A stretch of 64,000 nt of DNA. It comes from Nannocystales bacterium (lineage in GTDB: Bacteria > Myxococcota_A > Polyangia > Nannocystales > Nannocystaceae). Position numbers and translations under genes: made by a program. The stretch lies in NCBI GenBank assembly GCA_050633305.1, contig JBOEGF010000047.1, positions 32,001 to 96,000 on the forward strand, read 5' to 3'. Of the stretch, positions 30,789 through 48,845 are shown one piece after another; position 1 is the first letter of the stretch; every line of letters begins with the position of its first letter. Below the pieces are notes generated by a model. That model did no database searches. It was given only the letters and a program-made list of their open reading frames with translations, and was not told where the DNA came from.

Positions 30789-31754
30789 TCAGTCGATCGA
30801 CTTCACGCGTCGGTGGAAGCGAGCCACGATGTTCGGGTCCGGCGTGAGCGTGATCTGGGCATTCTCTTTTCCCTTGTAGGGAAACAGGCTGAGGATGTGC
30901 CGAATCGCGGCGAGCCGAGCACGCTTCTTGGAGTTCGCCTTGACGATGACCCACGGGCTGAAGGACGTGTGCGTCCGCGCGAACATCTCCTCTTTGTAGC
31001 GGGTGTACGTATCCCACAGGTCCTGGGCGCGATCGTCGACAGGACTGAGCTTCCACTGTTTGAGGGGGTTCTTCCGTCGGGCCTCAAAACGAGATTTCTG
31101 CTCGTCCTTGGAGATCGAGAACCAGAACTTGACCAAGTTCAGACCATCCTCGTAGAGCATGTGCTCAAACTCGGGAACCTGCCGCACGAAGGTGTCGTAC
31201 TGCGCTTGTTTGCAGAACCCGTTCACGGGCTCGACCACCGCGCGGTTGTACCAACTGCGATCGAAGAACACGATCTCGCCGGGATTGGGAAGCTGCCGGG
31301 TGTAGCGCTGGAAGTACCATTGCCCCTGCTCTTCGTCGGTGGGCTTCGGCAACGCGACGACTCGCATGGAGCGAGGGTTGAGATGTTCGGTGAATCGCCG
31401 AATCGTGCCGCCCTTTCCGGCGGCGTCGCGCCCCTCGAACAAGATGGCGATGCGCAGACCCTTGTCTTGAACCCACCGCTGCAGCTTCACCAGCTCGACC
31501 TGAAGCTGGCTGAGTTCTTCCTCGTACTGAAGCACGGAGACCACCTTCTTGAGGTTGATGTCTCGATGCCGCAGCAGCGCGATCAGGCCATCCCGCGACG
31601 TGACGCGCGAGAGTTCATCGTGTGTCAGCGGTGCCTTCCGCTTCTTCTTGGACACGTCGAGGATCCCGTCCTCGTCTTCGCTGGCCACTATCGTGGCAAG
31701 GACCTCTTCGGGAGCCCCTGCCTGTCCTCGCTTGCTCGCCGTGCTCTTCCCCAT
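30789..31754 (-). CDS. ppk2: Polyphosphate kinase 2
   Basis: LQVELVKLQRW, FEGRDAAGKGG, QWYFQRY, FFDRSWYNRA and KQWKLSPVD. Confidence 0.95.
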   Translation of the reverse strand: MGKSTASKRGQAGAPEEVLATIVASEDEDGILDVSKKKRKAPLTHDELSRVTSRDGLIALLRHRDINLKKVVSVLQYEEELSQLQVELVKLQRWVQDKGLRIAILFEGRDAAGKGGTIRRFTEHLNPRSMRVVALPKPTDEEQGQWYFQRYTRQLPNPGEIVFFDRSWYNRAVVEPVNGFCKQAQYDTFVRQVPEFEHMLYEDGLNLVKFWFSISKDEQKSRFEARRKNPLKQWKLSPVDDRAQDLWDTYTRYKEEMFARTHTSFSPWVIVKANSKKRARLAAIRHILSLFPYKGKENAQITLTPDPNIVARFHRRVKSID

Positions 31755-31847: not shown

Positions 31848-33680
31848 CTAACGCATACGTCGCTCGAGACGACGCGCGGTGTCTTCGAGGACCGCCCGGT
31901 ACGTTGGCGGAACCAACTCCACCTGGTGTCGCAGGTACGGCAGCAACTCGGAGTTCGTCAGCTCGCGGAGCGCGTGAAGGGCCAGTTCGGCGAACACCTT
32001 GTCGTTCTCGCGCAAACGGTCACACAAAAACTCCAGCGCGGGCGCGGTGTTGATCTTGCCGATCGCTCGAACGGCAGCCGTGCGCGCTTTCTCGGCATCG
32101 GGCAGGTCCCGCATGGAGAAGATGCGACGCAAGGGCTCGAACGCATGCGGAAACACGAGCCGGGTGGTCGAAGCGGCAGCCGCCTCTCGAACGTCGGAAT
32201 CGTCGTCGCGCAAGGCCTCACCGACCAGCGCGAACGACCGCTTGAAACGCAGGCTGCCCATCGCAGCACCCACGGCCTCCCGGATGTTCGCATCTGGGCT
32301 CAGGTAGAGCCGCTCGAGCGCCGCGATCACGGGATAGGCACGGATCGACTCCAGACGACGAATCACGTCCACCGCGGGGGCATCACCGCCGCGTCGTTCG
32401 AGGTCCAACACCAACAGCAGCGCGTGTCGCCGCACGAAGTCGGGGAAGCGACGATCCGCCATCACCCCCGCAGCGATCAGCCCGGGGTCGCCCTCGAGTT
32501 CCCACTCCGCGAGGTCCACGTACCAGACCTCCTCGTACTCAGGGAGTTGCTTGAGGAACTCTGGAACGGGCACAGGCCGTGGCGCGTCCTGCTGCTCATT
32601 GCCCAGGCGGTCGACGAGTCGGCGGTAGCGTTCGCGAACCTTGGTGGGCAACTCCAGCGCCGAGAGTCGCCCGTACACCTCGACCACCTGTCGATACGCC
32701 CGAACCGACGCGAAACCTTCGGACGCGGCCAGGAAAGCGTTCTCGACCATCTGCAGGGGATGCGAGGCCGCTTGCGCCTCGGCGGCCGTCTTCACCCATG
32801 CCTCCGCACTGCGCAGTCGAAGGTCATCCGCATACGGAAGACCCGCGCGGGTGCAGTAGTCGGCCGCCTCCCGCAGAATCCCCGCGGCGGCGTGGTGCTC
32901 TCCGGCCCGTCTCGCCAGGGTCACCAGAGCTTCGTAGAGCCGAAGGGCGTCGAGCTTGAGGCCGTCGTTGCGGAGGATACGGACGCTGTTGAGGTACCCC
33001 TCGGCGATGTTCTCGAACGCTCCGGCTTCGGCCCCGATCCGCGCCAGCAGCTGGTAGCAATCGAAGGCGCGTTCGCGCAGCCCTTCGGTCTCGAACCAGT
33101 CGGCGACCTCTTCGACCGCCGTCGTCGCGTCCGCGAGCGCGCTGCGGGCCCGCTCGTGCTTGAGACGAAGCAAGCACAGGCCGTAGTTGATCTTCGCCAA
33201 TGCGAGTTCGTACTTGCGGTCGCGAAGCTCGTCGGAGGTCATGATGACCTGCCACAACTCCGAAGCGGCCGCGTCGTCCCCGGCTCGTTCGAGGGCAATG
33301 GCCTGATGAACCGGCATTCGGGCAGCGGCGAACCACTGCGCAGCTGCGGCGTGGTGCCCCGCCCGGGCCATGTAGATGCCCTGCAAACGCATCCCCCGAA
33401 GCGCCCCCTCATCCCCCGCCTCGACGTTCGTGACGGCCGCTGAGAACGCCTCGGTCGAGGGGACCTCGGTCGCGCCCAGGTACGCAGTGCAGCCGGCCGC
33501 TTCACGCCAATGGGCAAGCGCGCGGAGGCTCTCCCCCATCGCACGCAGCCATTCTTCGTACTCGAAGTCGATGCGGTCGACGACCTCGACCAAGTGCCGC
33601 AGGTGGACGAGCGCGTCTGCGTGGCGACCCGCCCGGATGTTGGCCTCGGCCCGGACCCACAGCACCGCGGTATCGATCAC
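31848..33680 (-). CDS. TPR/SNAP-like helical repeat protein with C-terminal HEAT repeats
   Basis: All-helical, with repeats such as AAQWFAAA, AFDCYQLL and AAGILREAADY. HEAT-like DANIREAVGAAMG, DDDSDVREAAA and ARTAAVRAIGKI. 4-bp overlap with the vWA gene. Confidence 0.8.
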   Translation of the reverse strand: MIDTAVLWVRAEANIRAGRHADALVHLRHLVEVVDRIDFEYEEWLRAMGESLRALAHWREAAGCTAYLGATEVPSTEAFSAAVTNVEAGDEGALRGMRLQGIYMARAGHHAAAAQWFAAARMPVHQAIALERAGDDAAASELWQVIMTSDELRDRKYELALAKINYGLCLLRLKHERARSALADATTAVEEVADWFETEGLRERAFDCYQLLARIGAEAGAFENIAEGYLNSVRILRNDGLKLDALRLYEALVTLARRAGEHHAAAGILREAADYCTRAGLPYADDLRLRSAEAWVKTAAEAQAASHPLQMVENAFLAASEGFASVRAYRQVVEVYGRLSALELPTKVRERYRRLVDRLGNEQQDAPRPVPVPEFLKQLPEYEEVWYVDLAEWELEGDPGLIAAGVMADRRFPDFVRRHALLLVLDLERRGGDAPAVDVIRRLESIRAYPVIAALERLYLSPDANIREAVGAAMGSLRFKRSFALVGEALRDDDSDVREAAAASTTRLVFPHAFEPLRRIFSMRDLPDAEKARTAAVRAIGKINTAPALEFLCDRLRENDKVFAELALHALRELTNSELLPYLRHQVELVPPTYRAVLEDTARRLERRMR

Positions 33681-35155
33681 GAGCGACGACCTCCACCAGG
33701 CCGTGTCGAACGCCTCTTGGCGCGCCCACCATCGAGGTCGCTTTGGACCTCAGCGATGATCTGCCGGGCCTTGTGAGCGCGGCGCCCATGCGAGATGGCG
33801 TCGGAATCGATGACGTGGACCCTGTGTAGCGAGTCGAGATACGGCAGTTCCAGGGGCCCGCTGGGCAGGATGAACACCCCGTAGACCGGCGCCCGGGTGC
33901 TGAGCAGCGCCAGCTCGTCGGGTGGGAGCTGACACTCGCCGTGCGTGAGCAGGTAGACCAGCGACTGACCTTCCTTGCGCCGCGGCGTCGCGAGTTCGCT
34001 GTTGAGTTGCCGGATCACGCGGGCGTAGTTGCGACCGCGCTCCGCCCGAAACTGCAGCGCGTACGGGACCTCGGCGCTGCCCGTCCCGCTGACCTTCACC
34101 CCTTCGTACAGGCGTGAGTCAAAGAACCGCAGGCTTACATCCTCACCCAGCATCGCCAGCCGCTTGCACAGCGCCAGTGCAAGCCCCCGAGCGAACACCT
34201 CACGAACCCCGCGCATCGAGGCGGACCCGTCGACCAGCACCTGATGACGGCGCCGCTCGTTGTCCATCTGCTTCTCGTGCGTGAAGTAGAACAGCTCGTT
34301 GTCGACCAGCCGTTGCTCGAACACATCCTCGTCGTAGGCGAGCTGCGTGAGCACCAGGTCATCGAGGTTGCCGCGCCGCTCGATCGACGCGTACCCGTCG
34401 ATCGAGAAAGACTGCTGCCCGCCCTCGCGCCGAACCTCGAGGATGCTGGGAAGCAACTCCATCGAGAAGTCGACAACGTCGGCCAAGGACGGCGAGATGA
34501 TGACGTTGTATAGGTCGGCCAGATCGATCCCCGGCAACGCATCACCGCCGCGGAACAGCCCCAGCAACCGCAGCGCGTCGAGGTCGACCTGCTCCACCTC
34601 GAGGATCGGAAGCAGCCGATGCGTCGTCATCGTGCCCAGCCAGGCATGAGCCTCGCTCTGGTCGTAGCGGCCCCACGCGGAGGTGGGCTCGACCCGGGCG
34701 TACTGCACCACATCGACGGGAAGCATCGTCGGTTTGAGCACCCGAAGGTCTTCGGGAAGCTGCGGAATGATGGTGGAGAACACCCGAGCCAGAACCACGC
34801 CCACCATCGCGTCGCGGTGTTTCCATCCTGCTTGGGTCCGCACGAGCTCGGACTCCCCCAGCTCCAGCAACAACCGGCGCCAGGCCTCACAGACCTCCGG
34901 GTCCCCCAGTCCGCGGACCTGTCCAGCGGGTTTTCCCAGACCCGCGATCAAGCACCCAAGGTCGTGCACGACGACCAACGGGACCGCGTAGCCAAGTCGC
35001 CCCAGGGCGTTGTGCCAGGCCACTGCCCGCATGAGCGCGAGGGCACCGGTGCCCTCGAGCTGCGACATGGCCATCGTCCCGACCTGCCGTTCGAATCCGG
35101 GGCCGGGTCCAGGTCCGGAGCCTGTGTCCGGCCCACCAGCGGTGTCGCGCGCCAT
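33677..35155 (-). CDS. vWA domain protein (MoxR partner)
   Basis: MIDAS VLVDGSASMRG, LRFFDS and VYLLTHG. The preceding GYASIERRGNLDDLVLTQLAYDEDVFEQRLVDNELFYF segment resembles the one in MoxR-associated vWA proteins. Confidence 0.85.
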   Translation of the reverse strand: MARDTAGGPDTGSGPGPGPGFERQVGTMAMSQLEGTGALALMRAVAWHNALGRLGYAVPLVVVHDLGCLIAGLGKPAGQVRGLGDPEVCEAWRRLLLELGESELVRTQAGWKHRDAMVGVVLARVFSTIIPQLPEDLRVLKPTMLPVDVVQYARVEPTSAWGRYDQSEAHAWLGTMTTHRLLPILEVEQVDLDALRLLGLFRGGDALPGIDLADLYNVIISPSLADVVDFSMELLPSILEVRREGGQQSFSIDGYASIERRGNLDDLVLTQLAYDEDVFEQRLVDNELFYFTHEKQMDNERRRHQVLVDGSASMRGVREVFARGLALALCKRLAMLGEDVSLRFFDSRLYEGVKVSGTGSAEVPYALQFRAERGRNYARVIRQLNSELATPRRKEGQSLVYLLTHGECQLPPDELALLSTRAPVYGVFILPSGPLELPYLDSLHRVHVIDSDAISHGRRAHKARQIIAEVQSDLDGGRAKRRSTRPGGGRRS

Positions 35156-35182
35156 GAAGGAGCAATCAGAAGGAGAGAACCG

Positions 35183-36415
35183 TTAGACGAAGCGACTGGA
35201 GGCGAACATCGTCTCCAAGAGCTTGTCGACTTCACCGATCATGCGGCCGGCCGTGGGGTTGTCGGGCATGCGGGTGAGCGCAGCTTTGATGTCTCCGAGG
35301 TTTCGCAGCTGGCTGAACAACTGCATGTCCGAGAGCACCTCACTGCTGGTGAGGGTCTCGCGGATGACCTTGAGTTCTTCGAGGAGGTCGCTGAGGTTGG
35401 TCGGCGTAGCGCCGATCCGGGCCTGATCAGGGTGCTGCTCGTACCACTGGTCGAGCACGGGACCGACGATCTCTTGGAGGATTTCCTCCTGCTCGGGCGT
35501 GTTCCACACGTGGCGCAGCACGAAGAAGTCGCTGTCGTTGACCTTTGTTCGACCGTCGAACACGGCCGACGCTGCGAACAGCTTGAGCATCTTGACGATC
35601 CGGCGGTCGGACAGGCCGAGGCCCTCGGAGCGAATCTGAAATGCGAGGCCCTTGAAGGTGGCCAGGAACTCCTCGTTGAACGACAGCAGGTTGCCAAAGT
35701 TGCGCTGCAGCGAGCGGAGTTCGGCCGCCGTGACCACGGGGGTGAGCGCCTTGGAGTCGGGGTCCATGCCCCGTGCCTCCAGCTCGATGCCTTTTTGGAG
35801 CAACCCTCGGAAGTGATACGAGTCGAGGTAGTCGACACGCACCCGCAACAAGAAGCGGTCGAACAATGCGGAGAGCGCATCGTCGGTCGGCACCTCGTTG
35901 CTCGCGGCGAACATCGAGATCAGCGGCACCCGAATCGACTGGTTGCCATGGGTGAAGCGCCGTCCGTTGAGGACCGTCAACAAGCTGTTGAGAATGGCGC
36001 TGTTGGCCTTGAAAATCTCGTCGAGGAACACGACCTCGGACTCGGGCAGCATCGCCTCGGTCCGACGACGATACGACCCCTGCCGGAACGCCTGAATGTC
36101 GACCGGTCCGAAGATTTCGTTGGGCTCGGTGAATCGGGTGAGGAGGTAGTCGAAGTACTCCGCCTCGATCACCTGAGCGAAGCCACGGAGCAATGCCGAC
36201 TTGGCCGTGCCCGGAGGACCGACCATCACCAGGTGCTCGCCGGCGAGCGCACTGACGAAGAGGAGCCGAATGATCTCCTCCTTGCCCAGAAACTGTTGTT
36301 CGAGCTGACGCGCTCCGTCTTGGAGTCGTCGTGCGAGGTCCGGGATCGAAGGGGGATTCGAGGGCGCGGGCGCGTTGCCGGGCGGCGGCGGCGCGGGTGA
36401 CGGCTGCGTCATCAC
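35183..36415 (-). CDS. MoxR-family AAA+ ATPase (RavA-like)
   Basis: Walker A GPPGTAKS, YLLTRFTEPNEIFGP, Walker B FLDEIFKANSAILNSLL, AASNE, ALFDRFLLR and LSDRR. Confidence 0.93.
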   Translation of the reverse strand: MMTQPSPAPPPPGNAPAPSNPPSIPDLARRLQDGARQLEQQFLGKEEIIRLLFVSALAGEHLVMVGPPGTAKSALLRGFAQVIEAEYFDYLLTRFTEPNEIFGPVDIQAFRQGSYRRRTEAMLPESEVVFLDEIFKANSAILNSLLTVLNGRRFTHGNQSIRVPLISMFAASNEVPTDDALSALFDRFLLRVRVDYLDSYHFRGLLQKGIELEARGMDPDSKALTPVVTAAELRSLQRNFGNLLSFNEEFLATFKGLAFQIRSEGLGLSDRRIVKMLKLFAASAVFDGRTKVNDSDFFVLRHVWNTPEQEEILQEIVGPVLDQWYEQHPDQARIGATPTNLSDLLEELKVIRETLTSSEVLSDMQLFSQLRNLGDIKAALTRMPDNPTAGRMIGEVDKLLETMFASSRFV

Positions 36416-37584
36416 GCAGGTTTTACGATGGCGGGGACAAGGCCGGCTAGCAGATTCTCGACCGCCGCCTTCGGCACCAGCTCAGCGACGTGATCGAGGT
36501 ATTCGGTCCACAGGCGATTGGCTCCCGCCTCGAAGCTCTCCAGTCCCAAACCGGCACCCCGTACCGCCGTGCCGGACAACGGCGATCCTAGCCGCGAACG
36601 CAGGGCGGGCAGGAGCAGCGGTAGGGCCAAGAACGCCAGGACCCCCGGGTCACGGCTGCCCAGCGCCAGTCCCAACCGAGCGTCAAACTCCAGCACTTTG
36701 AGGAAGTGAAGGTGGATCAGCGACCCTACGAGCGCGCTGAGAGACTCGGGGTCCGAGGCGGGTACCGCACCGGGAAGCGCGAGCATGCCTCCGGGGCGTG
36801 CGGGCAGAGGCGCCGTGGGCTTGGGTGCAACCGAGGGAAGCAGCGCCGACATCACCGCCCCACCGACCTGAATCCAGTCTTTTCCTTGCGCCCAACGGTA
36901 GACGATCGCCCGGGCCAAGCCGCGCTCGCGAAGCGCGTCTGTGGCGAGCAAGGGGGACCAGCCCGAGGGTGCTCGGCGCGGCTCGAGTAGACACGTGAGC
37001 GGCGAGGCCCGGAGCGCATCGTCGATCAGACGTCCTGCCTCCGGTGCGTGTGGCAGCGTCAGCCAGGAATGCGTCTCACGCGCCGTCCCCAAGGACGGAC
37101 CGCCGAAGAATCGGCGCGGTGGCTCTTGCCCGGCGAACCGATGCTCACCACTGGCGTTGACCAGGACCGTGTCGGTGCGTTGCGACCCGAGGAATGCCCC
37201 CACGGTCACGTGCCGAGCAACGGCAGCACCGACGGAACTCGGAAACGGGAGCGTGAGGAGCGTGCGGGTGGCTCCCTCGACCCGGCGCCAGACGCTTGCG
37301 CGACTCCAAACCCTGGACCGGTCGGGATGATCGAACGCGAACGTGTTGTGCAGCCCCATCCACAACGAGAGTTCTTCGTCATCGGGCTCGGGCAACGCGG
37401 GGTGCGGCGTGAGTTCTTGGGCCCGGCGTAGCCGGAGGTACGCGAGCGCGGACCCAGCCTGGCTCACGTCACCAAGCCACTGGTCGCGCTCCCGCGTTCG
37501 CAGCGGTCGGCCCACGTGCACCGCGCCTCCGCCGAGCAACGGCAGGATGAAACCACGGAGGAATTGGTCGAACGTTGCCGGCAC
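36412..37584 (-). CDS. Hypothetical protein of the MoxR-vWA operon
   Basis: Long ORF whose stop overlaps the MoxR start and which begins 9 bp after the upstream gene's stop. No recognised motif. Confidence 0.75.
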   Translation of the reverse strand: MPATFDQFLRGFILPLLGGGAVHVGRPLRTRERDQWLGDVSQAGSALAYLRLRRAQELTPHPALPEPDDEELSLWMGLHNTFAFDHPDRSRVWSRASVWRRVEGATRTLLTLPFPSSVGAAVARHVTVGAFLGSQRTDTVLVNASGEHRFAGQEPPRRFFGGPSLGTARETHSWLTLPHAPEAGRLIDDALRASPLTCLLEPRRAPSGWSPLLATDALRERGLARAIVYRWAQGKDWIQVGGAVMSALLPSVAPKPTAPLPARPGGMLALPGAVPASDPESLSALVGSLIHLHFLKVLEFDARLGLALGSRDPGVLAFLALPLLLPALRSRLGSPLSGTAVRGAGLGLESFEAGANRLWTEYLDHVAELVPKAAVENLLAGLVPAIVKPA

Positions 37585-37593
37585 TGCCGAGTC

Positions 37594-39174
37594 CTACTGT
37601 CCGGGTCCTCGCTCGTCGTCCCGACCCATGACCGGGGCCTGCCCCCCGAATCCCCACAGGGCAAAACGACCGAGCTTCTCGTTGCGGATCGAGCCCGCGG
37701 TCAAAGCCGGCGCCGACGGGTCCACAACCTGAGCATCTTCCAACGTCAAGCGGCCGATCAGAGCCGCGTCCAACGGCAGCAACTGATCCGGCCCGACGCG
37801 GATCGGGGCCTTGTCGGGTCCGAGGAACAACGCGTGGTCCTCAGGCCCCAAGCCAAGAAGCTGCCGGAGCAGCGTTGGGCGGACGCGCGGCCACAGCTCG
37901 TACCCCTCGGGCAGCAAGACACCGGGGGCCGCCTCGCCCAAGCGCTGCCCCAGCGGCACGATGACCCCTGCCCCGATGCCCGCGGCCGAGGCCGCGGTTC
38001 GAGGTCCGAGGGACGACCCGGTGAGGACGACGACACCTTCGTCCAGCGGGACGACACGTGAGGCGGCGAGGGCACTGGGTGGGATCAGGTAGACGAGATT
38101 CCGCAGCAGGGCGACCTGCGACCAGGCGATCAGCGTGCCGCGAGGTTCCTTGGGCGCCGTCGTGGCACGCACCTGAAGCTCGACTCGCAACGGGGCCAGT
38201 TCGGCATCGCGCAGCTGCCCGACCTCTCGCAGCTGGTTGACCCCCGTCGATTCGACGAGGTGGCGACCATCGACGAAGCGTGGAGGGCCACCGAGGCGCT
38301 CGACCCGACCCACGCGCCCCCGGAACAGGAACATCTCCTCCCCGGGAAAACAGCTCTGGGCGGAGGACAGTGAGATCGCGTGTCGGTAGCCGATCTCGAC
38401 CGCAGCCCGAGAGCTGACGGGTGCGAACAGATCGATTCCCGGAATGCCCGCGAGCACGTCCAGGGTCCGGGGCTCGGGCTGACGAAGCCGAAGCAACAGG
38501 CTGGGCCGTGCGTCGCTCTCGAGCTGCACGTAGTAGCCGGCCATCGGCACCTCGGACTGCCACAGGTACCGCAGCACCCGCTCGGCGAGCCCGGCGGAGA
38601 CGAGGACCAGCGCCATCTCCCGCATGCCGAGCAGCTCCGAGTCGCGGGACACCCCGCCCAACGGCATCGGCATCGGGCGCAGCTGCAAGCGCTGGATCAG
38701 CTCGACCGGATCGATCCGGTCCAACGTTTGGTACCGCGCCATGTGGGTTGGCTCGACCACGGTCACGTCGTCGCCCGAGGGCACGATCGGCTCCACGACG
38801 TCGTAGCCGAACGGCGCATCGCGCTCTCGCCAGCGAAGGAACACCGAGCCGGCGCCCGAATACAGCTCGCCCCGCGCGGCCATGCACAACCGGGAGATCC
38901 GGTCGACAGCATAGCCATCCCCGGCACCACACCGCATCAGCATCGCGTGTCCGCCACCTTCACGGCGCGCGTGCTCCAACGTCATCGTTGGGATGAGTTC
39001 GTCGAGGCTGGCCTCGTCGCTGTACGCCCCGAGAAAGGAGACCAGCCAGTCGATCGAGCCGAACACCAGGAGGAGTTCCCGACCCACGGCGATTCCGCGG
39101 GCGTCGGGCGCCAGGCCTTGCATTCGGAATCGCGTTTGTCCCGCCGCAACGGGCTCGAGCAGGGCTGAAGCCAC
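37594..39174 (-). CDS. Hypothetical protein, first gene of the MoxR-vWA operon
   Basis: Coding-like from GTG 39174 (alternative ATG 39123). Extended -10 TGcTAGTAT lies 8 nt upstream. The ORF-track extension to 39735 is antisense to the FHA gene. Confidence 0.75.
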   Translation of the reverse strand: MASALLEPVAAGQTRFRMQGLAPDARGIAVGRELLLVFGSIDWLVSFLGAYSDEASLDELIPTMTLEHARREGGGHAMLMRCGAGDGYAVDRISRLCMAARGELYSGAGSVFLRWRERDAPFGYDVVEPIVPSGDDVTVVEPTHMARYQTLDRIDPVELIQRLQLRPMPMPLGGVSRDSELLGMREMALVLVSAGLAERVLRYLWQSEVPMAGYYVQLESDARPSLLLRLRQPEPRTLDVLAGIPGIDLFAPVSSRAAVEIGYRHAISLSSAQSCFPGEEMFLFRGRVGRVERLGGPPRFVDGRHLVESTGVNQLREVGQLRDAELAPLRVELQVRATTAPKEPRGTLIAWSQVALLRNLVYLIPPSALAASRVVPLDEGVVVLTGSSLGPRTAASAAGIGAGVIVPLGQRLGEAAPGVLLPEGYELWPRVRPTLLRQLLGLGPEDHALFLGPDKAPIRVGPDQLLPLDAALIGRLTLEDAQVVDPSAPALTAGSIRNEKLGRFALWGFGGQAPVMGRDDERGPGQ

Positions 39175-39182
39175 GGCGCAGG

Positions 39183-39191
39183 ATACTAGCA
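39183..39191 (-). promoter_or_regulatory. Extended -10 element for a probable leaderless MoxR operon transcript
   Basis: Minus strand reads TGC-TAGTAT-CCTGCGCC-GTG. Confidence 0.45.
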
Positions 39192-39501
39192 GCCCGAGGT
39201 GAAACCCGGCGGGGCGGATCCCAAAGGATTTTCGAGCCCCGCGGCGAGAGTCGAAACCGCGACGAATGAGGTGTCCTGCGAGGTTTGGGGACGCGCGGAG
39301 GCACAAAACGGCACGGGCGACCCCCTGCTGTGCTCGCCGAGTCGACCTGCTCGTCCGTCCTCGTTGCCCCCTGCCCGTGTCGGCACGCCGTTGGACTGCT
39401 AAGATCGCATCCGGAGGCACAGGCCCCTGTCGCGAGGAAACGACCCGCTCACTCACCCGGAAAACGCGCTCGCTCGGCTGGACCCCACCGGTCGTGCGCG
39501 G

Positions 39502-40761
39502 TTGTCCCGGAGGTCGACGCTGCGGCCCGAGGTTCGTGCCGCGCTTGCGCTGGAAGAAGCCGGGGAACTCGAAGAAGCCGCGCGGGTCTTCGAGCACGCA
39601 GGCGAGCACGCTCAAGCGGCGCTGTTGCGGATCGAGCACGCCCGCACCCTCCGCGATCCATCCGACCGGCTCGATGTCCTGCGAGAGGGATGCGCCCGGA
39701 ACTCGGGCAACACACCGCAGGGCAAGACGCTGCATCTGGCGCTGGCTGAGGTGTTGCTCGACGAGCGTGACGCCGAGACCGACGCCTCCCGAATCCGCTC
39801 GCTTGAACTCGAAGCTGCGCGCGCCCTCGAGGAAGCCGGAGAGTTCGCGCGCGCCGGCGAGAGCTACGAAGCGCTCGGCTTACTGCGCAAAGCCGCCCGC
39901 GCCTACGAACGCGGCGGCGAGATCGCCAAGCTCGAACTGGTGCTGGCCGTGCTCGAACGCATCGATGACAGCCGAAAGCGCGAACGCGACCTGCTGCGCG
40001 AGTTCGACGACGCCGTCGCTGCTGGCCAACGACGCTTGGCCCAGGAGCTGCTCGCCGAACACGACACCCCGACCCTGCCCGTCCTCGCCTCCGAAGCGCA
40101 TCGGACCGCCGCCGCGGGGCTGCCCCCGGCACTGCTCGAGCGACGCCAGTGGCTGCAGGGCCGGGTGCTCGACCGAGACCGGGTCGACCTCGCGTGGGGG
40201 AAGGACCGCTTGACCTCCGTCCGGATGAGTCGCCATCTCGAGATCGGCCGCTCCCCGAGTGCCGACATCACCCTGCCCGCCCCCCGACTCTCGAGAGAAC
40301 ACGTTCGGCTGTCCTTGGAGACGCTGGAGGGCCGAACCCGGCTTGCTGCGACCGACCTCGGCTCAAAGGTCGGCACTTTCTGGGAGGGCGAAGCGCTCGT
40401 CCCGGGCGAACCCACCCCCTTGGAAGAACCCGGGGCGCTGGCCCTGGGCATGACCTCCGAGCTCGAAGTCGTCCCGGTCGAGGGTAACGCAGGCGCGGTG
40501 CACGGAGCGTTGGTCCGCGCCGCCCCTGACGAAGCGTGGATGCTCTTCCTCCCCAATGGCGGGCCGCTGTGGCTCGCACCGGACATCAAGGTGCCCGCCC
40601 GGGTGTTGTTCGACCGCGGCCTGGTCACCTTCGACCTCGCCACCGGCGTGGGCGCGACCCTGGGCGACCGTCCGTTGGGCGCGGGCGCGAACATCGAGTT
40701 CATCTTGGGCGACCGCTTGTGCTTGGTGGGCGCCCCGCTGTGCCTCGAGGTGCTTGGATGA
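39502..40761 (+). CDS. TPR-like repeat plus FHA domain protein
   Basis: N-terminal repeats (EEAGELEEAARVFEHAGE, EEAGEFARAGESYE). FHA motifs EIGRS, LSREH and DLGSKVGT. Confidence 0.82.
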   Translation: MSRRSTLRPEVRAALALEEAGELEEAARVFEHAGEHAQAALLRIEHARTLRDPSDRLDVLREGCARNSGNTPQGKTLHLALAEVLLDERDAETDASRIRSLELEAARALEEAGEFARAGESYEALGLLRKAARAYERGGEIAKLELVLAVLERIDDSRKRERDLLREFDDAVAAGQRRLAQELLAEHDTPTLPVLASEAHRTAAAGLPPALLERRQWLQGRVLDRDRVDLAWGKDRLTSVRMSRHLEIGRSPSADITLPAPRLSREHVRLSLETLEGRTRLAATDLGSKVGTFWEGEALVPGEPTPLEEPGALALGMTSELEVVPVEGNAGAVHGALVRAAPDEAWMLFLPNGGPLWLAPDIKVPARVLFDRGLVTFDLATGVGATLGDRPLGAGANIEFILGDRLCLVGAPLCLEVLG

Positions 40762-42131
40762 CCGCGTCCTGGGCCCTGGAGATGGGTGGCGCCGAAACCC
40801 CGCCCTCCCCCCTGCACAATGCCGCCTCGGAAGTGATCGCCGCGTTTGCCGACGGCGCGACCACGCCCGCGGAGCATGCCCTGCTTGGGCAGTTCGCCGA
40901 TGCGCTGATGCGAGGTGTTCCCATGAGCGCGCTGCGAGCCGACCTCGCGCAGCTCAACCACGAGGGCTACATCCGCGGTGCGCTGGTGAGCATGGCGGTC
41001 GCGCTGCAGCGGCACGGCAACCCGGACGTCGCCCTCGCGCTGGGCCGCGAGCTCATGGACGCGATCGACATCGAGCTGGGCGTGCGCCTGTGCCGAGCGG
41101 TCCTCGCTCTCGACGATGTCGACCAGCACCGACACCAGCCTGGCAGCACCTTTGTTGCGGCCAACCGCATCGTCGGCGACGCGCTGCTCGAAGCGGGCGA
41201 TGCCTCCACCGCGCTGCGGCATTTTGAAGCGGTGTTGTCCGTCGATGTCGACGATCCGCGGGCGCTGCGGGGATGGTCTGAAGCCACCCGAAGCCTCGAG
41301 CGTCGCGGCGTCGCAGTCGAGCACCGAACGCGCGGGCTATCGCTGCTCGAGGGGCTCGATGAACTCGAACTCGAAGAGGGCCTGGCCGGAGAACGCTACG
41401 AGGTTCAGCGACCGCTGGGACGGGGTCGCCACGCGGTCGTCTATCAGGCATTCGACCGCCACGTCGGGCGCGACGTCGCGATCAAGCGCCTCCTGGACGC
41501 CAGCGCACGGACCTCGGCAGCGCCGCCTCGCGTGGTCGAGGCGCGATTCTTCGCCGAAGCGTCCACCTTGGCCAAAGTCCGCAGCCCGTTCGTGGTTGCC
41601 CTCCTCGACGCGCATCCGTCCAAGCGCTTCATCGCGCTCGAGCTGTGCCGGGGTGGCAACCTGCGTCTCGCGTTGCGCCGGGGGCTTGTCGACGCATCCG
41701 ATCTTCCCCGGATCGGTGGCCAGCTCCGGTCTGCGCTCGAGGCCGTCCGCGCTGCGGGTGCGGTCCACCGAGACGTGAAGCCTGCAAACATCCTCGTCCG
41801 AGCAGCGCGGCGAGGCTCCACGATCGCACTGGGAGACTTCGGGCTCGCGGTGGGGCATGCCAAGGCATCGGGCACGGGCCGTGGCGGCACGCTGCGCTAC
41901 CTCGCACCGGAGCTGCGCACGAAAGACGCGCCCAAAGCGACGGGGCAATCCGACCGTTTCAGCGCCGGCGCGGTGCTCCTGGAGCTGGCGCTGGGAAGCC
42001 TCCCCGAAGCTTTCGACCACGTCGACGACACCTTCGACGCCGCCGCATTCGTCCCCGAGGACCTCCCCGAGGCATGGACCCCCCGCCTTCGCAGCCTTCT
42101 ACAGGCCGACCCGCAGGACCGCTCGTGGTGA
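40758..42131 (+). CDS. Cytoplasmic Ser/Thr protein kinase with N-terminal helical/TPR region
   Basis: LGRGRHAVVY, VAIKR, HRDVKPANIL, DFGLA, GTLRYLAPE and DPQDR. ATGA overlap with the FHA gene. Confidence 0.9.
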   Translation: MTASWALEMGGAETPPSPLHNAASEVIAAFADGATTPAEHALLGQFADALMRGVPMSALRADLAQLNHEGYIRGALVSMAVALQRHGNPDVALALGRELMDAIDIELGVRLCRAVLALDDVDQHRHQPGSTFVAANRIVGDALLEAGDASTALRHFEAVLSVDVDDPRALRGWSEATRSLERRGVAVEHRTRGLSLLEGLDELELEEGLAGERYEVQRPLGRGRHAVVYQAFDRHVGRDVAIKRLLDASARTSAAPPRVVEARFFAEASTLAKVRSPFVVALLDAHPSKRFIALELCRGGNLRLALRRGLVDASDLPRIGGQLRSALEAVRAAGAVHRDVKPANILVRAARRGSTIALGDFGLAVGHAKASGTGRGGTLRYLAPELRTKDAPKATGQSDRFSAGAVLLELALGSLPEAFDHVDDTFDAAAFVPEDLPEAWTPRLRSLLQADPQDRSW

Positions 42132-42778
42132 AATCCGTCGTCACCCCACTCTCGTTGCTGCTGCTCATCGTCACCGCGGTGGGCTGCGAGGAGCAGCCGC
42201 GGCTGTACAGCACCCGCGCCGCGACGGGCGAGGTCATCTTGCGTGAAGACTTCGACCGAGATGAGCTTGGCGAACGCTGGCACGCCACGGGCGAAGGTGC
42301 CCGGATCGAAAACGGCCTGCTCGTCGTCGATGGTGTTCGCAACCACCCGTTGTGGCTCGAACTCGACCTACCCGACGACGTTCGGATCGAGTTCGACGCC
42401 TGGGCCACCACCGACGAAGGAGACGTCAAGGTTGAGCTCTTCGGCGACGGGACGAGTTTCGCGACGACCCCCAACTACATCGCCAGCGGGTACGTCGTGA
42501 TTTTCGGTGGTTGGAACAACACTCTGTCTGCGCTCGTCCGCAAGAACGAGCACGGTCGGCAGCGGGTCACGACCAACGAGCTGAAGGTCCAGCCCGACAA
42601 ACGCTACCACTTTGTGCTGACCCGCACGGGCCGCGAGCTTCATTGGGAGGTCAACGGAGCCGAACTTCTGGTGTACGAAGACGCCCAACCTCTGCGTGGC
42701 GTAGGTCAAAACCGCTTCGCGTTCAGCGGGTGGGACGCCCAGGCCCATTTCGACAACCTCGTGATCGAAGCGCTGTGA
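42128..42778 (+). CDS. Lipoprotein with concanavalin-A-like beta-sandwich
   Basis: GTG overlaps the upstream stop. Lipobox AVGC, then EDFDR...W, RIEFDAW, RYHFVL, VNG and HFDNLVIE. Confidence 0.75.
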   Translation: MKSVVTPLSLLLLIVTAVGCEEQPRLYSTRAATGEVILREDFDRDELGERWHATGEGARIENGLLVVDGVRNHPLWLELDLPDDVRIEFDAWATTDEGDVKVELFGDGTSFATTPNYIASGYVVIFGGWNNTLSALVRKNEHGRQRVTTNELKVQPDKRYHFVLTRTGRELHWEVNGAELLVYEDAQPLRGVGQNRFAFSGWDAQAHFDNLVIEAL

Positions 42779-45700
42779 CCGATTCCCCCGACCTGCCGAG
42801 AGTGTTCGGCCGCTACATCCTCACCGCGCTGGTCGGCGAGGGGGGCATGGCAGAGGTCTACACCGCCACCGTGCAGGTCGCGGCGGGGCTCACCAAGCGC
42901 GTCGTCATCAAGAAGATCCGGCAAGTCTACGCCGACCACGAAGAGTTCACGCGAATGTTCGTCGACGAGGCGAAGATCGCCTTGTCTCTCAACCACGCGA
43001 ACATCGTCCAAGTCTTCGACTTTGGGCAGGTTCAAGGCGCCTTCTACCTCGCGATGGAGCCCGTCGAAGGCATCGACGCGATGCGGCTGTTTCATGCGGT
43101 CCGGGACGCCCAAGAGCGTTTTCCACGGGTTGTCGCCGCGTACATCGGGCATCAGGTCGCAGCCGCCCTCGCCTACGCGCATCGCAAGACCGACGACCAC
43201 GGCCAGCCCCTCGAGTTGGTCCACCGCGACATCAGCCCGCACAACGTGATGGTGTCGTTCGAGGGCCAGGTCAAGATCGTGGATTTCGGCATCGCGCGAA
43301 CCGCAAACGGATCACGCGATGCCCCGGTCCCCGGCATCGGGGAACGGACAGAGGAAACGATCAAGGGCAAGGTCGCGTACATGTCCCCCGAGCAGGCCCA
43401 CGGCCTGGCGGTGGACCAACGCTCCGACGTCTACTCCCTCGGCGTCCTGCTGTACGAACTCGTCTCCGGCGAGCTCGTGTTTCGCAGCCGCGACCGGCTC
43501 GCCGCGCTCGAACGCGTTCGCAACGAGCCTCTTCCGGCGTTGCGAGACCAGGCCGACGACGTTCCACAAGCCCTGCTGAACATCATCGACCGGGCGCTCG
43601 AACGCGACCCGCAGGATCGCTACCCCACCGCGCGCGCGATGCAGTCCGAGCTCGCGAAGTTCCTGCACGCCGCAGACCCGGTGGTCGACGACGACACCCT
43701 CTCGCAGTTCGTCCTGCGCTACTTCACTCCCACCCCACCTCCGGTCATCGACGAGAGCGCCCTTCCACGCGACGCGACACGGGGCGGACAGACCTCCTAC
43801 CCGTCAGTCCGAGGGACCGCCGCGCGCGTCATCGTCGTGCACATGGCGTTGGACGCCCATCCGCTCATGCCCACCGCGGGGCCCGTCGAAGCAGAGCCCT
43901 TCTTGCGGCTGGTCGATGACGTCGCGTTCAAGCGCGACGCGGTGCTGCTGCGAAGGGATGAATCGGGCATCACGATGGCCTTTGGGGCGGTCCTACAATC
44001 CCCCGACGACGCCGACCGAGGGTTGCGCTGTGCCCTCTCGCTGCAGGATGACGTCGCCCACATGGCCCCCGGGCTCCGGGTAGGCGTGGTCGTTGCCCGC
44101 ATTCGCGCGAGCGTCACCCGGGAGAGCAAGACCGTGCAGGTCAAGGTGCGTCCACAGACGGCCGACCTTCTCCACAAGGTCGCCGCGGTGGGCATGGAAG
44201 GCCCTGTTCGGGTCGCCGGTCCGCTGATCGAGGCGCTCTCGAAGGGCTGGCGATTTGGTCCCGAAGCGTTCGTCGACCCAGACGGAGCAGGAGAAACCCA
44301 CTCGGCGGTGGATCGAGAGCTGGGCAACGTCGCCCCGGTCCTGGGCCCACTCGCACCGCAGGCTCGTACCCGCGCCGCAGCCCCGGGGGGTCGAGCGCTC
44401 CTGTTCGGACGAGAGCTGGAACTCAAGGCCCTGCGCGACACCTTCTCCGAATCGATCCGGGCCCGAGAATCGCGCGCTGTGGTGGTGCTCGGTGAGGTGG
44501 GTGTGGGCAAGCGAGCCGTCGTCGAGCGATTCGTAGAATCTCTGCCCCGGACCGCCTGCTGGATCCTACGAGCATCGGGGACGTACGGCCGGCGCAACGT
44601 CCCGCTGGGCGTGGTCCTCGATCTGCTCTCTCGCTTCCTGGGTACCGACCATCGCTGCGATGAGAGCGATGTGGTGAGCAAACTGCAAAGCCACGGCGTC
44701 AGCGAGGCGCCGGTCTTGGGCGCGGCGCTCGCCTCCGCGTTGGGCCTCAAGGGAAGTGCGGCCGATGGCGGGGACGATGATCTCGATCCGTTCACGCGCC
44801 GCGACCGACTTTGGAAACTCGTCCGTCGCTTGACCACCGCGCTGGCACAACGCCGGCCGGTGCTGATCGTGATCGAAAACCTGCACCTGCACGACGAACA
44901 GAGCATCGCGCTGCTCCGCGAGTGGGTTCAGATCCGGCATCCGTACCCGATCTTGGGGGTTACGACCGGCCGACCCGGGACCCCGCGTGTCGATGCGATC
45001 CTTGGAGAGCCCAACATCGCGCGCATCGAGTTGGGTGAGCTGGACCTGCAAGCGCGACATGAACTCGTGTCCTCACGGTTCGAAGACTCGCCTTCCGCAC
45101 GAACCTTCGCCGAAGCCCTGCTGGCCCAGACCGGCGGCAATCCGTTGTTCATCGAGGAGAGCCTGGCTTCACTCCTCGAAGCCGGCGTCATCGGATGGAA
45201 CGCCCAGGCCAGCGCGCTGGTGGTCAAGCAGCACGGGGCTCCCATCCGCATGCCGCCCAGCGTCGAAGCTGCCTTGGTCGAACGCATCGACCGCCTGCCC
45301 GAGGAGGACCGCCAAGCCCTCCTCGGCGCCGCAGTGCTCGGTCGACGGTTTCGCAGCCACGAACTCTCCGACCTCATCGAGCGCAGCGTCGGCCGAAGTG
45401 TCGACCACCTCATCGAGCGCAACCTTCTCGAGCGACTCACACCGACCTCGCCCCTGGGAGAGAACGCTCGGTTCGCCACCTTGAGCCTGCACGAGGCCTG
45501 CAAGGGCATGCTCGAGACCTCCGCTGCCCACGCCCTTCATGTTCGGGCCGCCCACCTGATCCGCGAGCGGCCCGACTACGCTGCAGAGCGTGACGACGGC
45601 CCGATCGCCGACCACCTGGTCCAGGCCGGCCGCGCATCCGAAGCCATCGCCCCAGCCTTGGCCGCTGCGCTTCGAGCCTACGACCTGGCGGGCAACGTCG

Positions 45701-47070
45701 AGGCCTACTACCACCTCTCGCAAGCGCTGCGCGCGATGGCGGACGATGACCCGCGGCGCTGGGATGCGCTGCTGAGGCGCGAGCGAATCCTTCGCGCATG
45801 GGGACGACGACGGGCCCAGGGTGCCGATGTTCGCGCCCTGCTACATACCGCCGACTCGCTGGGCGACCCGGTCCGCCAAACGATTGCGTCGATCCGGTTG
45901 CTGCGCTTCTATCTTGAGGTTGGCCGCGTGCATCAGGCTCAGCGCCTGATCCCCCGGATCGAGGCGAGGATCGAGACCCTGCCCGCCCCAGATCCCTTCT
46001 GGGCGGTCCTTGGCGAGCTTCGCTCCGAGCTCTTCTTTTCGACCGGGGAGTTCGAGGCCTCCGAGAACACCGCTCGCTCGAGCCTGCCGTACTGCGCGAG
46101 CGATGCGAGAGGCCAGCGGCAACGTTGCAGGCTGCTGCGCAGCATCGGACAGGTCAAGGCCACCATCGGGCGGTTCGCGCAAGCGCGGCAGTGCTACACC
46201 GAAGCGCTCGGCATCGCCCGCGAGATCGGCAACCAGCGCCTCGAAGCAAACCTCCTCAACGCTCTTGGCGAGGTTGCCGGTCGGAGCACCCACTACCAGG
46301 AAGCGGTGGACCACTTCAAGGCGGCCCTCGCCATCGACCGCGATCTGGGAGACCGCTACGCGACCGGCCGAAAGCTCGCCAACCTCGGCATGACCTATGC
46401 CTGCATTGGCTTGGCCCGCCGTGCCGAACGGTTCTTCCGCAAGGCGCTCGAACTCCACGAAGCGGTCGGCCACCCCGGCGAGTTCAACGACGCCGCCGTT
46501 CACCTGGGCGAGGTCGTCGCCGACGGCGGGGACCCAGAGACCGCTCGCACGCTCTTGCTGGATGCCGCACGCGTGGCGGCCACCCGGGGAGACATTCGCA
46601 CCGAACTTCGTGCCCGGGTCCGCCTCGCCCAAGCGCTGCGCGCCGGCACCCCGTCGGCCGAAGACCTCAAGGCCTCCCGCGTAACGGCCGAGCAGGTCCT
46701 CACCACGGCGCGGGCACAAGGGCTGCGAACCTCGACCTGCCGCGCACTCCACGTGTTGGCGCAGCTGGACCTCGCCGCGGGCAACCTCGACGCGGCCCAG
46801 GCGGGCCTCGAAGAAGCCGTCGAACTCGTTCGCGCAGGCGCCGCCCCCGTCGACGGAGTCCGTTCGATCCACCTGCTTGGGGTTCGGCTTCGCGACTGTG
46901 GGCACCACGACGATGCGCGAGCACTTCTGCACGAAGCCGCGCTGATGGTGAAGGGCCGGCTCGATGAGCTCCGCGACAGCGATCTACGCTCCGGCTACCT
47001 CGAACAGCCCGAGGTCCGCCAGATCATGACCGACGGCGGTCTCGACGCGCCTCACGACGACCTCGGATAG
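42775..47070 (+). CDS. Multidomain Ser/Thr kinase - degenerate cyclase-like domain - STAND-type AAA ATPase - TPR protein
   Basis: Kinase motifs GEGGMAEVY, HRDISPHN, DFGIA and GKVAYMSPE. Cyclase-like AFGAVLQSPDDADRGLRCAL..LRVGV. NTPase LFGRELEL, GEVGVGKR, IENLH and TGGNPLFIEE. C-terminal TPRs. Confidence 0.9.
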   Translation: MTDSPDLPRVFGRYILTALVGEGGMAEVYTATVQVAAGLTKRVVIKKIRQVYADHEEFTRMFVDEAKIALSLNHANIVQVFDFGQVQGAFYLAMEPVEGIDAMRLFHAVRDAQERFPRVVAAYIGHQVAAALAYAHRKTDDHGQPLELVHRDISPHNVMVSFEGQVKIVDFGIARTANGSRDAPVPGIGERTEETIKGKVAYMSPEQAHGLAVDQRSDVYSLGVLLYELVSGELVFRSRDRLAALERVRNEPLPALRDQADDVPQALLNIIDRALERDPQDRYPTARAMQSELAKFLHAADPVVDDDTLSQFVLRYFTPTPPPVIDESALPRDATRGGQTSYPSVRGTAARVIVVHMALDAHPLMPTAGPVEAEPFLRLVDDVAFKRDAVLLRRDESGITMAFGAVLQSPDDADRGLRCALSLQDDVAHMAPGLRVGVVVARIRASVTRESKTVQVKVRPQTADLLHKVAAVGMEGPVRVAGPLIEALSKGWRFGPEAFVDPDGAGETHSAVDRELGNVAPVLGPLAPQARTRAAAPGGRALLFGRELELKALRDTFSESIRARESRAVVVLGEVGVGKRAVVERFVESLPRTACWILRASGTYGRRNVPLGVVLDLLSRFLGTDHRCDESDVVSKLQSHGVSEAPVLGAALASALGLKGSAADGGDDDLDPFTRRDRLWKLVRRLTTALAQRRPVLIVIENLHLHDEQSIALLREWVQIRHPYPILGVTTGRPGTPRVDAILGEPNIARIELGELDLQARHELVSSRFEDSPSARTFAEALLAQTGGNPLFIEESLASLLEAGVIGWNAQASALVVKQHGAPIRMPPSVEAALVERIDRLPEEDRQALLGAAVLGRRFRSHELSDLIERSVGRSVDHLIERNLLERLTPTSPLGENARFATLSLHEACKGMLETSAAHALHVRAAHLIRERPDYAAERDDGPIADHLVQAGRASEAIAPALAAALRAYDLAGNVEAYYHLSQALRAMADDDPRRWDALLRRERILRAWGRRRAQGADVRALLHTADSLGDPVRQTIASIRLLRFYLEVGRVHQAQRLIPRIEARIETLPAPDPFWAVLGELRSELFFSTGEFEASENTARSSLPYCASDARGQRQRCRLLRSIGQVKATIGRFAQARQCYTEALGIAREIGNQRLEANLLNALGEVAGRSTHYQEAVDHFKAALAIDRDLGDRYATGRKLANLGMTYACIGLARRAERFFRKALELHEAVGHPGEFNDAAVHLGEVVADGGDPETARTLLLDAARVAATRGDIRTELRARVRLAQALRAGTPSAEDLKASRVTAEQVLTTARAQGLRTSTCRALHVLAQLDLAAGNLDAAQAGLEEAVELVRAGAAPVDGVRSIHLLGVRLRDCGHHDDARALLHEAALMVKGRLDELRDSDLRSGYLEQPEVRQIMTDGGLDAPHDDLG

Positions 47071-47086
47071 CGGCTATTCTCCGGCG

Positions 47087-47689
47087 GTGAGCCCCGCGCG
47101 ATCGGTTGCCCTGGCTGCGTGTCTTCTGGCTGGGTGTGCCAGCCGCTCGGGCATGCTCGTCGCGCCCTCGGGCGAGATGCGGCAGACCGGCCGCGACATG
47201 GAAAGCGGCGTGACGATGGTGATCACCTCCGGCGTCTGGACCGGTGCGCCCGAGGGACTCGAGGAAGAGCTCGAGGTCCTCCACGTGCTGGTCGCCAATG
47301 ACGGAGACCAGCCGATCTTGCTCGCACCCGGGGACTTTGAGTTCCACGACCGACGAGGGTTCCGCTACGCCGTCTTGGATACCGGGGCGAGCTTCCGCCC
47401 GGCAACAACCACCGAGAAGAGCACTGGACGCTACGACTTTGACCTCGAGCGGGGATACGACCCGGGCGGACCCGCACCGGTCGAGCGCATCGAACCCTTG
47501 GGGGACATTGCCAGGCTGGCGCTGCCCTGGGGTGTCCTGCTCCCCGGATCTCAGATGCGCGGCTTTCTCTACCTCGAACCCGTCGCCGAGTCGGCCAACG
47601 GCGGAACGCTGACATGGCGCATGACCACAGCGGCGCACCAACGCATCGCCGACGTCGTCTTCGAGATGTCCGTGGCTCGCGCCCGCTAG
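47087..47689 (+). CDS. Lipoprotein, DUF4352-like Ig fold suspected
   Basis: Lipobox LAGC, then LHVLVANDGDQPI...DFEFHD...LLPGSQMRGFLYL. Confidence 0.75.
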   Translation: MSPARSVALAACLLAGCASRSGMLVAPSGEMRQTGRDMESGVTMVITSGVWTGAPEGLEEELEVLHVLVANDGDQPILLAPGDFEFHDRRGFRYAVLDTGASFRPATTTEKSTGRYDFDLERGYDPGGPAPVERIEPLGDIARLALPWGVLLPGSQMRGFLYLEPVAESANGGTLTWRMTTAAHQRIADVVFEMSVARAR

Positions 47690-48778: not shown

Positions 48779-48845
48779 CGGGTGGGTCTCCTGTGGGTCG
48801 TGGCGGCTCCTCCGCCTTGCCAACACCCTATTCATAGCAAGACAG

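Follow-up and report, generated by a model that had tools for sequence, protein, structure and literature searches.

A co-inherited seven-gene MoxR-vWA module with FHA and Ser/Thr kinase partners in the Myxococcota class Polyangia

A role in immunity has been predicted for the MoxR-vWA ternary systems, some of whose accessory domains, such as fvmX7 and bpX2/bpX3/bpX5, have no known job. In this work, we analyzed a window of 64,000 nucleotides from a Nannocystales bacterium (assembly GCA_050633305.1, contig JBOEGF010000047.1, positions 32,001 to 96,000 of the forward strand), in which seven genes, encoding two proteins named here U1 and U2, a MoxR AAA+ ATPase, a vWA protein, a TPR-HEAT protein, a TPR-FHA protein and a TPR-Ser/Thr kinase, are one evolutionary module. 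The module falls within the MoxR-vWA ternary family, but not in any of its described subsystems. No description of the seven genes was found in the literature searched, which was mostly open-access, the source data of Figure 1 of PMC7159879 lying outside its scope.

Two subsystems reported by Kaur et al. (2020, PMC7159879) provide the main terms of comparison: the FtsH ternary systems (vWA-MoxR subsystem 3, with the ivWA, ivWA-helical_N and fvmX7 families) and the beta-propeller ternary systems (subsystem 4, with bpMoxR, bpX2, bpX3 and bpX5). According to the passages of that paper available to us, to which all statements on it refer, a GXXXTAKS motif marks the MoxR of both, and conflict systems are characterized by their variability, by lateral transfer and by a patchy presence; a ring is formed by MoxR, a peptide is gripped by the vWA domain through a metal site, and the bound protein is remodelled and released as ATP is turned over (section 8). 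Further points of reference are RavA-ViaA of E. coli and the ArnA-ArnB pair of Sulfolobus, which, in the available passages of PMC4858521 and bioRxiv 10.64898/2026.08.11.744115, has its genes away from the pilus loci and yet acts as a control on type IV filaments; ArnB-type vWA genes are there often linked to MoxR/GvpN ATPases.

Gene layout and likeness to described systems

A sequence-only reading of the locus had proposed two operons diverging from a gap of about 330 bp, with 4-bp stop/start overlaps at 40758, 42128 and 42775 in the right one. Both features are borne out by the coordinates of the ten open reading frames (ORFs), all of them open, with a third-codon-position GC content of 0.76–0.84: the gap measures 327 bp, and the left operon adds two stop/start overlaps, at 33677 and 36412. 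The left operon (minus strand) reads U1, U2, MoxR, vWA, TPR-HEAT; the right one (plus strand) reads TPR-FHA, TPR-kinase, a lipoprotein, a kinase-STAND-TPR protein and another lipoprotein. The core genes and the region between the operons are the following:

37594..39174, minus strand: U1, core, 526 amino acids
36412..37584, minus strand: U2, core, 390 amino acids
35183..36415, minus strand: MoxR AAA+ ATPase, core
33677..35155, minus strand: vWA protein, core, 492 residues
31848..33680, minus strand: TPR-HEAT protein, core, 610 amino acids, TPR/SNAP-like repeats followed by C-terminal HEAT repeats
39175..39501, no strand: divergent intergenic region, 327 bp, presumed shared promoter region
39502..40761, plus strand: TPR-FHA protein, core
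40758..42131, plus strand: TPR-Ser/Thr kinase, core, soluble

No sigma-70 match was found in the intergenic region (39175-39501), where promoter signals were not above those of shuffled sequences. The matched TPR-FHA and U1 regions are 112–511 bp apart in 23 of 24 linked loci, and a U1 start near 39174 is favoured because U1 homologues align from residues 1-6. Seven of the ten ORFs are single-copy in the 11-Mb source genome (E<=1e-5), in which MoxR has two distant relatives (22–26% identity) and the kinases have many.

The MoxR protein matches the Pfam family bpMoxR with 257 bits, against a cut-off of 27; its P-loop (GPPGTAKS), Walker B DE, N173, R187 and R191 are invariant in all 35 sequences aligned. 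The match is not specific for beta-propeller systems, since the MoxR of an FtsH system also passes (204 bits). The closest solved ATPase is RavA (E 4e-63), of which only the AAA part (residues 7-308) is aligned, and with 198 bits on the full-length RavA family, against a cut-off of 681, the protein is no full-length RavA orthologue. In RavA-ViaA, too, the MoxR gene lies upstream of the vWA gene; the module differs in the C-terminal region of MoxR and in having five additional conserved partners.

The vWA protein consists of an N-terminal helical domain, with invariant P59, H64, D65 and G67, and a vWA domain, in which D309, S311 and S313 of the DxSxS motif are kept in 50, 49 and 50 of 50 members, respectively, and T404-H405 is present in all of them. 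We take H405 to substitute for the last aspartate of the metal ion-dependent adhesion site, assuming T-D-G to be the usual pattern. T404, at the metal site, is also the only Thr conserved in the alignment, where no conserved Thr-rich tail was seen. The Pfam family ivWA is matched by 24 of the 50 members (E<=0.05), the window protein staying below the cut-off: its assignment is based on the DxSxS motif and on homology to the FtsH-system vWA protein (hhalign 97.3% over 362 columns). The conserved part stops near residue 475 of 492; a sequence family search found no beta-propeller family among the 50 members, and the vWA profile had no sequence match in the PDB.

In many lineages, the MoxR-vWA junction (window 35156-35182) is interrupted by inserts with no relation to each other, about 0.7 to 24 kb long, seen at the matching site in L006, L007, L014, L028, L073, L076, L078, L100 and G210 (here and below, G numbers denote sampled genomes, f numbers families and L numbers fetched loci). 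The gap was considered as an effector slot and rejected, the inserts being unrelated between lineages. A small gene lies between MoxR and vWA in G245 (L074:11298-11678), G090 (L096:4946-5362) and G150 (L072:6058-6501), of families f7 and f8; the one in G245 gives a weak receiver-domain match, and a second, two-component input is possible.

For U1, a tandem of ferredoxin-like alpha/beta domains is predicted (mean predicted local distance difference test, pLDDT, 87.5; best Z 7.9). The window protein has no Pfam match of its own; among its homologues, 47 of 96 match bpX2 and 30 of 96 match fvmX7 (E<=0.01), several exceeding the cut-off, and residues 163-472 are homologous to fvmX7 and bpX2/bpX3/bpX5, the profile aligning with the N-terminal part of fvmX7 at an hhalign probability of 98.3%. 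The U2 model is mostly helical, with one beta-hairpin region (pLDDT 92, predicted template modelling score 0.89); U2 matched no family, and its best fold match had a Z of 5.1. Neither U1 nor U2 had a clear counterpart in fold searches, a result indicating neither a new fold nor the absence of relatives; in the ESM Atlas, U2 had no match at 0.9 or above and U1 none that was usable. U2 was also considered as the split C-terminal half of fvmX7 and rejected for lack of similarity, as was TPR-HEAT, with a probability of 1.9%.

In the TPR-FHA protein, G249-R250 and S264-R265-x-H267 are invariant in 23 of 23 sequences, and, judging from the alignment, the predicted phosphothreonine-binding Arg and Ser are intact. 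All f1 rows shown have another residue in place of the FHA-domain Asn, and its replacement is likewise found in f9, f36, f49 and f58. In the TPR-kinase, K243, E267, H337, D339, K341, N344, D360 and G362 are invariant in 30 of 30 sequences. Its intact catalytic residues contrast with the mostly inactive effector kinases in the passages of Kaur et al. (PMC7159879).

Kinship to the ternary systems, suggested by the sequence-only reading, is thus confirmed for MoxR, vWA and U1. With the FtsH systems, as far as the passages of PMC7159879 go, the module shares the GxxxTAKS MoxR, a vWA protein with a homologous N-terminal helical domain, the likeness of U1 to the N-terminal part of fvmX7, and the gene order fvmX7-like, MoxR, vWA. 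In contrast, it has no FtsH, fvmX5, radical SAM or ubiquitin-like genes and includes, in addition, an intact kinase, TPR-FHA, TPR-HEAT and U2; a separate, vertically inherited clade is formed by its MoxR, and its vWA protein keeps the DxSxS motif, lacking in the FtsH-system protein compared. No FtsH-type AAA+ third component was found among the scanned window ORFs or recurring beside the core genes; the separate paralogous loci do carry one. Family scans of the ten genes, NEFF1 not being covered, detected no radical SAM, ubiquitin-like conjugation or caspase gene.

The beta-propeller systems, in the same passages, resemble the module in the bpMoxR match, far above its cut-off, in the bpX2/3/5 matches of U1 homologues, in having a TPR component and in lacking a conventional effector; they differ in that no propeller follows the vWA domain of the module, which has no variable membrane-anchored third component, its TPR proteins being conserved and soluble, and which is near-universal within families rather than sporadic. 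An FHA protein, a vWA protein and a catalytically intact Ser/Thr kinase are co-inherited here, as would be expected of an ArnA-ArnB-like switch. The likeness to ArnA-ArnB, which has FHA, vWA and Ser/Thr kinases in common with the module, lies in parts and logic and is an analogy only; nothing corresponding to U1, U2 or TPR-HEAT appears in the passages of PMC4858521 and bioRxiv 10.64898/2026.08.11.744115.

Co-inheritance and joint loss of the core genes

In a sample of the phylum, the vWA protein was found in 33 of 301 genomes, only 2 of them outside the class. A test set of 52 genomes was composed of 32 vWA-positives, the source genome excluded, and 20 vWA-negatives of the same class. U1, U2, MoxR and TPR-HEAT are each present in all 32 positive and in none of the 20 negative genomes; TPR-FHA was initially found in 30 positives and no negative, and both misses were recovered on closer look, bringing the figure to 32 of 32. 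Co-occurrence of the core holds even when the genes are scattered, those of f2 lying at several separate places.

In a second sample of 201 genomes, evenly drawn from the class, an orthologue of the vWA protein was found in 126 and one of the TPR-kinase (E<=1e-85) in 102, 101 of which are vWA-positive. The lone exception, G329, carries FHA and kinase genes at a contig edge, with no U1 found. The 25 vWA-positive genomes without a kinase match belong mostly to f10 and f67: several f67 matches are near the threshold, and TPR-FHA is present in 5 of 5 tested f10 genomes lacking the kinase match. In 43 of the 101 genomes, from 8 families, the vWA and kinase genes are divergent, on one contig and within 32 kb.

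The layout was also followed in 40 loci found by the vWA protein, of which 5 had no U1, 7 had too little upstream DNA and 28 were informative. TPR-FHA is head-to-head with U1 in 24 of these 28 Nannocystaceae loci, the family to which most named relatives belong. The same layout occurs in G061, a genome of another class, and is therefore probably old. Cultured carriers are Enhygromyxa, Plesiocystis and Paraliomyxa, and a vWA orthologue is found in Labilithrix. In G245, two near-identical copies of the whole module (C20 and C14; L074 and L098) reflect either a duplication or an assembly artefact.

Natural deletions were identified beside pilB, assigned by Pfam. In families f2, f3 and f9, the FHA gene of the FHA-kinase pair lies head-to-head with pilB, at a distance of at most 2.3 kb, in 18 of 20 positive genomes, the other two being undetermined. 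No TPR-FHA or kinase was found in the pilB regions of 14 negative genomes, one contig ending too early to tell. In two negatives of f2, G100 and G080, the gene that pilB directly faces is the ThiF-rhodanese one located after the kinase in f2 positives; in the f3 negatives, it is the gene that comes after the kinase in G059. The pair has thus disappeared from its original place, in lineages that lost the five MoxR-side genes as well.

The sequence-only reading had named MoxR-vWA homologues without linked FHA and kinase genes as the sign of chance adjacency. The neighbourhoods (24 of 28 loci), the genome counts (101 of 102) and the joint loss at pilB show the opposite, and the two operons are therefore considered one evolutionary module. 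Chance adjacency is rejected, given the conserved layout and the joint loss at a syntenic site. The claim of a single module stands for the seven co-inherited core genes; the STAND kinase and the two lipoproteins appear, by their distribution, to fall outside it.

Proposed mechanism, cellular role and alternatives

That the seven genes are also one functional module is, in our opinion, highly probable. We favour phospho-gated MoxR-vWA remodelling as their function, and assign to it a probability of roughly 0.55, Ser/Thr phosphorylation presumably being relayed to MoxR and vWA. The module would be a cytoplasmic, seven-protein remodeller, vertically inherited in one Myxococcota class (Polyangia, as judged from the names of relatives). 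U1 may dock on the vWA protein, and U2 and TPR-HEAT may be scaffolds or clients; the TPR-kinase would phosphorylate a threonine, possibly in its own linker, and TPR-FHA would read the phosphothreonine and either bring the client to the ATPase or gate the latter. A predicted vWA-U1 complex scored 0.60, against 0.00 for the best of 3 controls, with at least 47% of contacts in common between runs and a partner pLDDT of at least 75. We rate this as weak support: the mark used is reached by 116 of 157 solved pairs and 2 of 215 mismatched ones, and only 18 solved pairs, along with both passing mismatches, reach it with a score of no more than 0.60. A linker Thr with hydrophobic residues after it is found, counting by eye, in 21 of 24 kinase rows outside f1 and in 1 of 6 f1 rows; as a guess, guided by general FHA preferences, it could be the FHA ligand.

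Various observations weigh against this reading, or against the one-module view on which it builds. The counts in the 52 genomes are not independent, because the genomes are related, and the profiles were partly built from them; 10 of the 20 negatives are of one genus. The back-to-back layout is absent in 4 of the 28 informative Nannocystaceae loci, including that of Paraliomyxa miuraensis, and is not visible in 58 of the 101 genomes of the second sample, where the genes are on different contigs (56) or otherwise arranged (2). A phylum-wide FHA search, with 6 candidates scored per genome, was positive in 26 of 301 genomes, one of which, G191, is vWA-negative: this genome, 96% complete, has U1, U2, TPR-HEAT, FHA and kinase, the core vWA and MoxR genes not being found. 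pilB is kept in 18 of the 20 module-negative genomes, so pili do not need the module. The source family mostly replaces both the FHA Asn and the kinase-linker Thr, and a physical link of FHA protein and kinase to MoxR, vWA, U1, U2 and TPR-HEAT is presumed.

Part of these observations suits an alternative which we hold to be improbable, namely that the MoxR-vWA set and the FHA-kinase pair are two biochemically separate units, tied by a common lifestyle and promoter and lost together without contact. The pair does move as a unit of its own, to beside pilB in three families, it occurs in G191 with no core MoxR or vWA found, and most negatives are small genomes. G191, however, retains U1, U2 and TPR-HEAT together with the pair, and the divergent layout persists in 8 families and another class. 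Genome size as the only cause of co-occurrence is weakened, because vWA, kinase, U1 and TPR-FHA are all lacking in three genomes of 8.4–9.9 Mb (contamination 6–8%), and genomes of 4.2–4.8 Mb retain the whole set; large negatives, with hundreds of kinase candidates, miss exactly the TPR-kinase and TPR-FHA. Even less room is left, in our estimate, for a machine needing all ten genes, in which an envelope signal would enter via the lipoproteins and the STAND kinase and be relayed through FHA to MoxR and vWA. Translational coupling of the lipoprotein and STAND genes to the kinase favours such a scheme, as do the position of these genes, kept in Nannocystaceae, in G090 and more loosely in G245, and a STAND orthologue which in G271 is close to MoxR-vWA and in G110 comes behind vWA. 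STAND, in contrast, is distributed differently from the core, with homologues in 28 of the 32 positive and 4 of the 20 negative genomes, and the FHA-kinase pair of most other families lacks such neighbours. Neither the TPR-kinase nor the STAND kinase carries a membrane segment, so that another transmembrane partner would be needed; the envelope signal of the sequence-only reading is not upheld.

That reading had also hinted at a conflict system. An immunity system of the ternary type, fixed in the class, could be imagined, in which the kinase and FHA sense an invader, and MoxR-vWA sets the threshold, with U2 or some unlinked protein as effector; we regard it as unlikely. In its favour are the bpMoxR score and GxxxTAKS loop of MoxR, the homology of vWA and U1 to FtsH-system parts, the gene order fvmX7-MoxR-vWA, STAND-TPR genes recurring beside scattered members, and the lack of a conventional effector in the beta-propeller systems too, as described in the passages of Kaur et al. 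(PMC7159879). Against it, profile scans of the ten genes matched no nuclease or toxin family, in keeping with the earlier remark that no such effector is visible, and PADLOC matched only the kinase domains. The ratio of nonsynonymous to synonymous substitution rates, 0.03–0.22 for nine genes against four close relatives, denotes purifying selection, with no hypervariable effector part. In the 201-genome sample, the module is present in 34 of 34 f1 and 32 of 33 f8 genomes, being patchier in f67 (23 of 34). Quick trees of MoxR, U1 and FHA, drawn without a species tree, group by family, and the GC content of the region equals that of the rest of the window: recent acquisition is rejected on both grounds. 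No relative was found in viral contigs, and a plasmid search gave a single match, with 18% coverage.

Genomes with the module also carry true FtsH ternary systems, in the form of sporadic paralogues at loci of their own. Second MoxR genes were found at separate loci in 11 of the 32 positive genomes; by Pfam, three loci were confirmed to be FtsH systems and one to be of the beta-propeller type, and in a quick tree the MoxR of true ternary systems falls on long branches outside the module clade. The bona fide FtsH or beta-propeller-type loci are L156-L160, L164-L166 and L227, some of which adjoin radical SAM genes and putative WGR-like genes. Being conserved, single-copy and vertical, the module shows the opposite of the marks of conflict given in the passages of PMC7159879, and a cellular role, such as routine assembly or disassembly of complexes, is more likely than anti-phage defence.

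As to the client of the phospho-gated remodeller, the pilB synteny, PilB-like and PilT-like neighbours and the archaeal precedent point, tentatively, to type IV pilus machinery. In G061, vWA is followed by a PilB-like gene (MshEN plus T2SSE; L094:1628-3427), and in G110 two genes for PilT-like ATPases are located downstream of U1 (L126:1203-4301). Against this lead, three module-negatives (L209, L216 and L218) have other FHA genes 2-4 kb away from pilB, the pilB of the source genome is on another contig, and the pilB synteny may be one old event. Equally tentative is a broader view, in which the module would be a housekeeping relative of the FtsH/beta-propeller ternary conflict systems, either their sister or similar to their ancestor, that binds metal at a vWA site with a His substitution and includes a U2 of unmatched fold. 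In this class of myxobacteria it would then remodel the type IV pilus, or some related machine of the cell surface, as an AAA+ protein set switched by phosphorylation, and would be an independent bacterial counterpart of archaeal ArnA-ArnB.

Having the same parts in conserved, single-copy form, the module is a tractable place to learn what the parts of ternary systems do, and it offers a test of whether conflict systems derived from a cellular chaperone or the reverse. Seven hypothetical proteins of cultured, little-studied myxobacteria are defined as one machine, and the gene set suggests a direct control of a bacterial MoxR ATPase by Ser/Thr phosphorylation.

Accessory and neighbouring genes

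The remaining three genes of the right operon are the following:

42128..42778, plus strand: predicted lipoprotein ("ConA-like"), accessory, AVGC lipobox-like
42775..47070, plus strand: kinase-(cyclase-like)-STAND NTPase-TPR protein, accessory, 1431 amino acids
47087..47689, plus strand: last predicted lipoprotein, accessory, LAGC

Among the domain labels proposed from sequence, MoxR, HEAT, FHA, both kinases, AAA_16 and TPR hold in family searches, as does vWA on the grounds given above; "ConA-like" and "cyclase-like" are matched only below cut-off, by DUF6250 (21.7 bits) and by the kinase/cyclase family TIGR03903 (residues 41-998 of the STAND protein), respectively.

All three genes look accessory to the module, and the STAND and lipoprotein genes may be a lineage-specific input. 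STAND homologues are found in module-positive and module-negative genomes alike, strong orthologues only in families f1, f7 and f8. Occurrences of the "ConA-like" gene were limited to loci of f1, G090 and G245 (three families), and apart from the window the last lipoprotein was met in two fetched loci, each belonging to f1; no genome-wide search was made for either. Distant paralogues of the window STAND protein are found next to core genes in five or six genomes of f2: a STAND-TPR gene immediately precedes MoxR, and a kinase-STAND-TPR gene is opposite U1 (L176, L177, L180, L184, L187; L109, L117, L119, L120, L121, L124).

Beyond the left operon, 93 bp after TPR-HEAT and on the same strand, lies a polyphosphate kinase 2 gene (window 30789-31754, minus strand, 326 bits), which is not seen as a conserved neighbour. 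Beyond the right operon, two related Cys-rich proteins, probably exported and featuring acidic Thr/Ala/Asp repeats, are encoded on the minus strand (window 47819-48835 and 49011-50171), with no match in Pfam or NCBIfam. They are followed, on the same strand, by two genes (window 51574-52941 and about 52938-53500), the putative products of which resemble, by their sequence, the HslU ATPase and the HslV protease.

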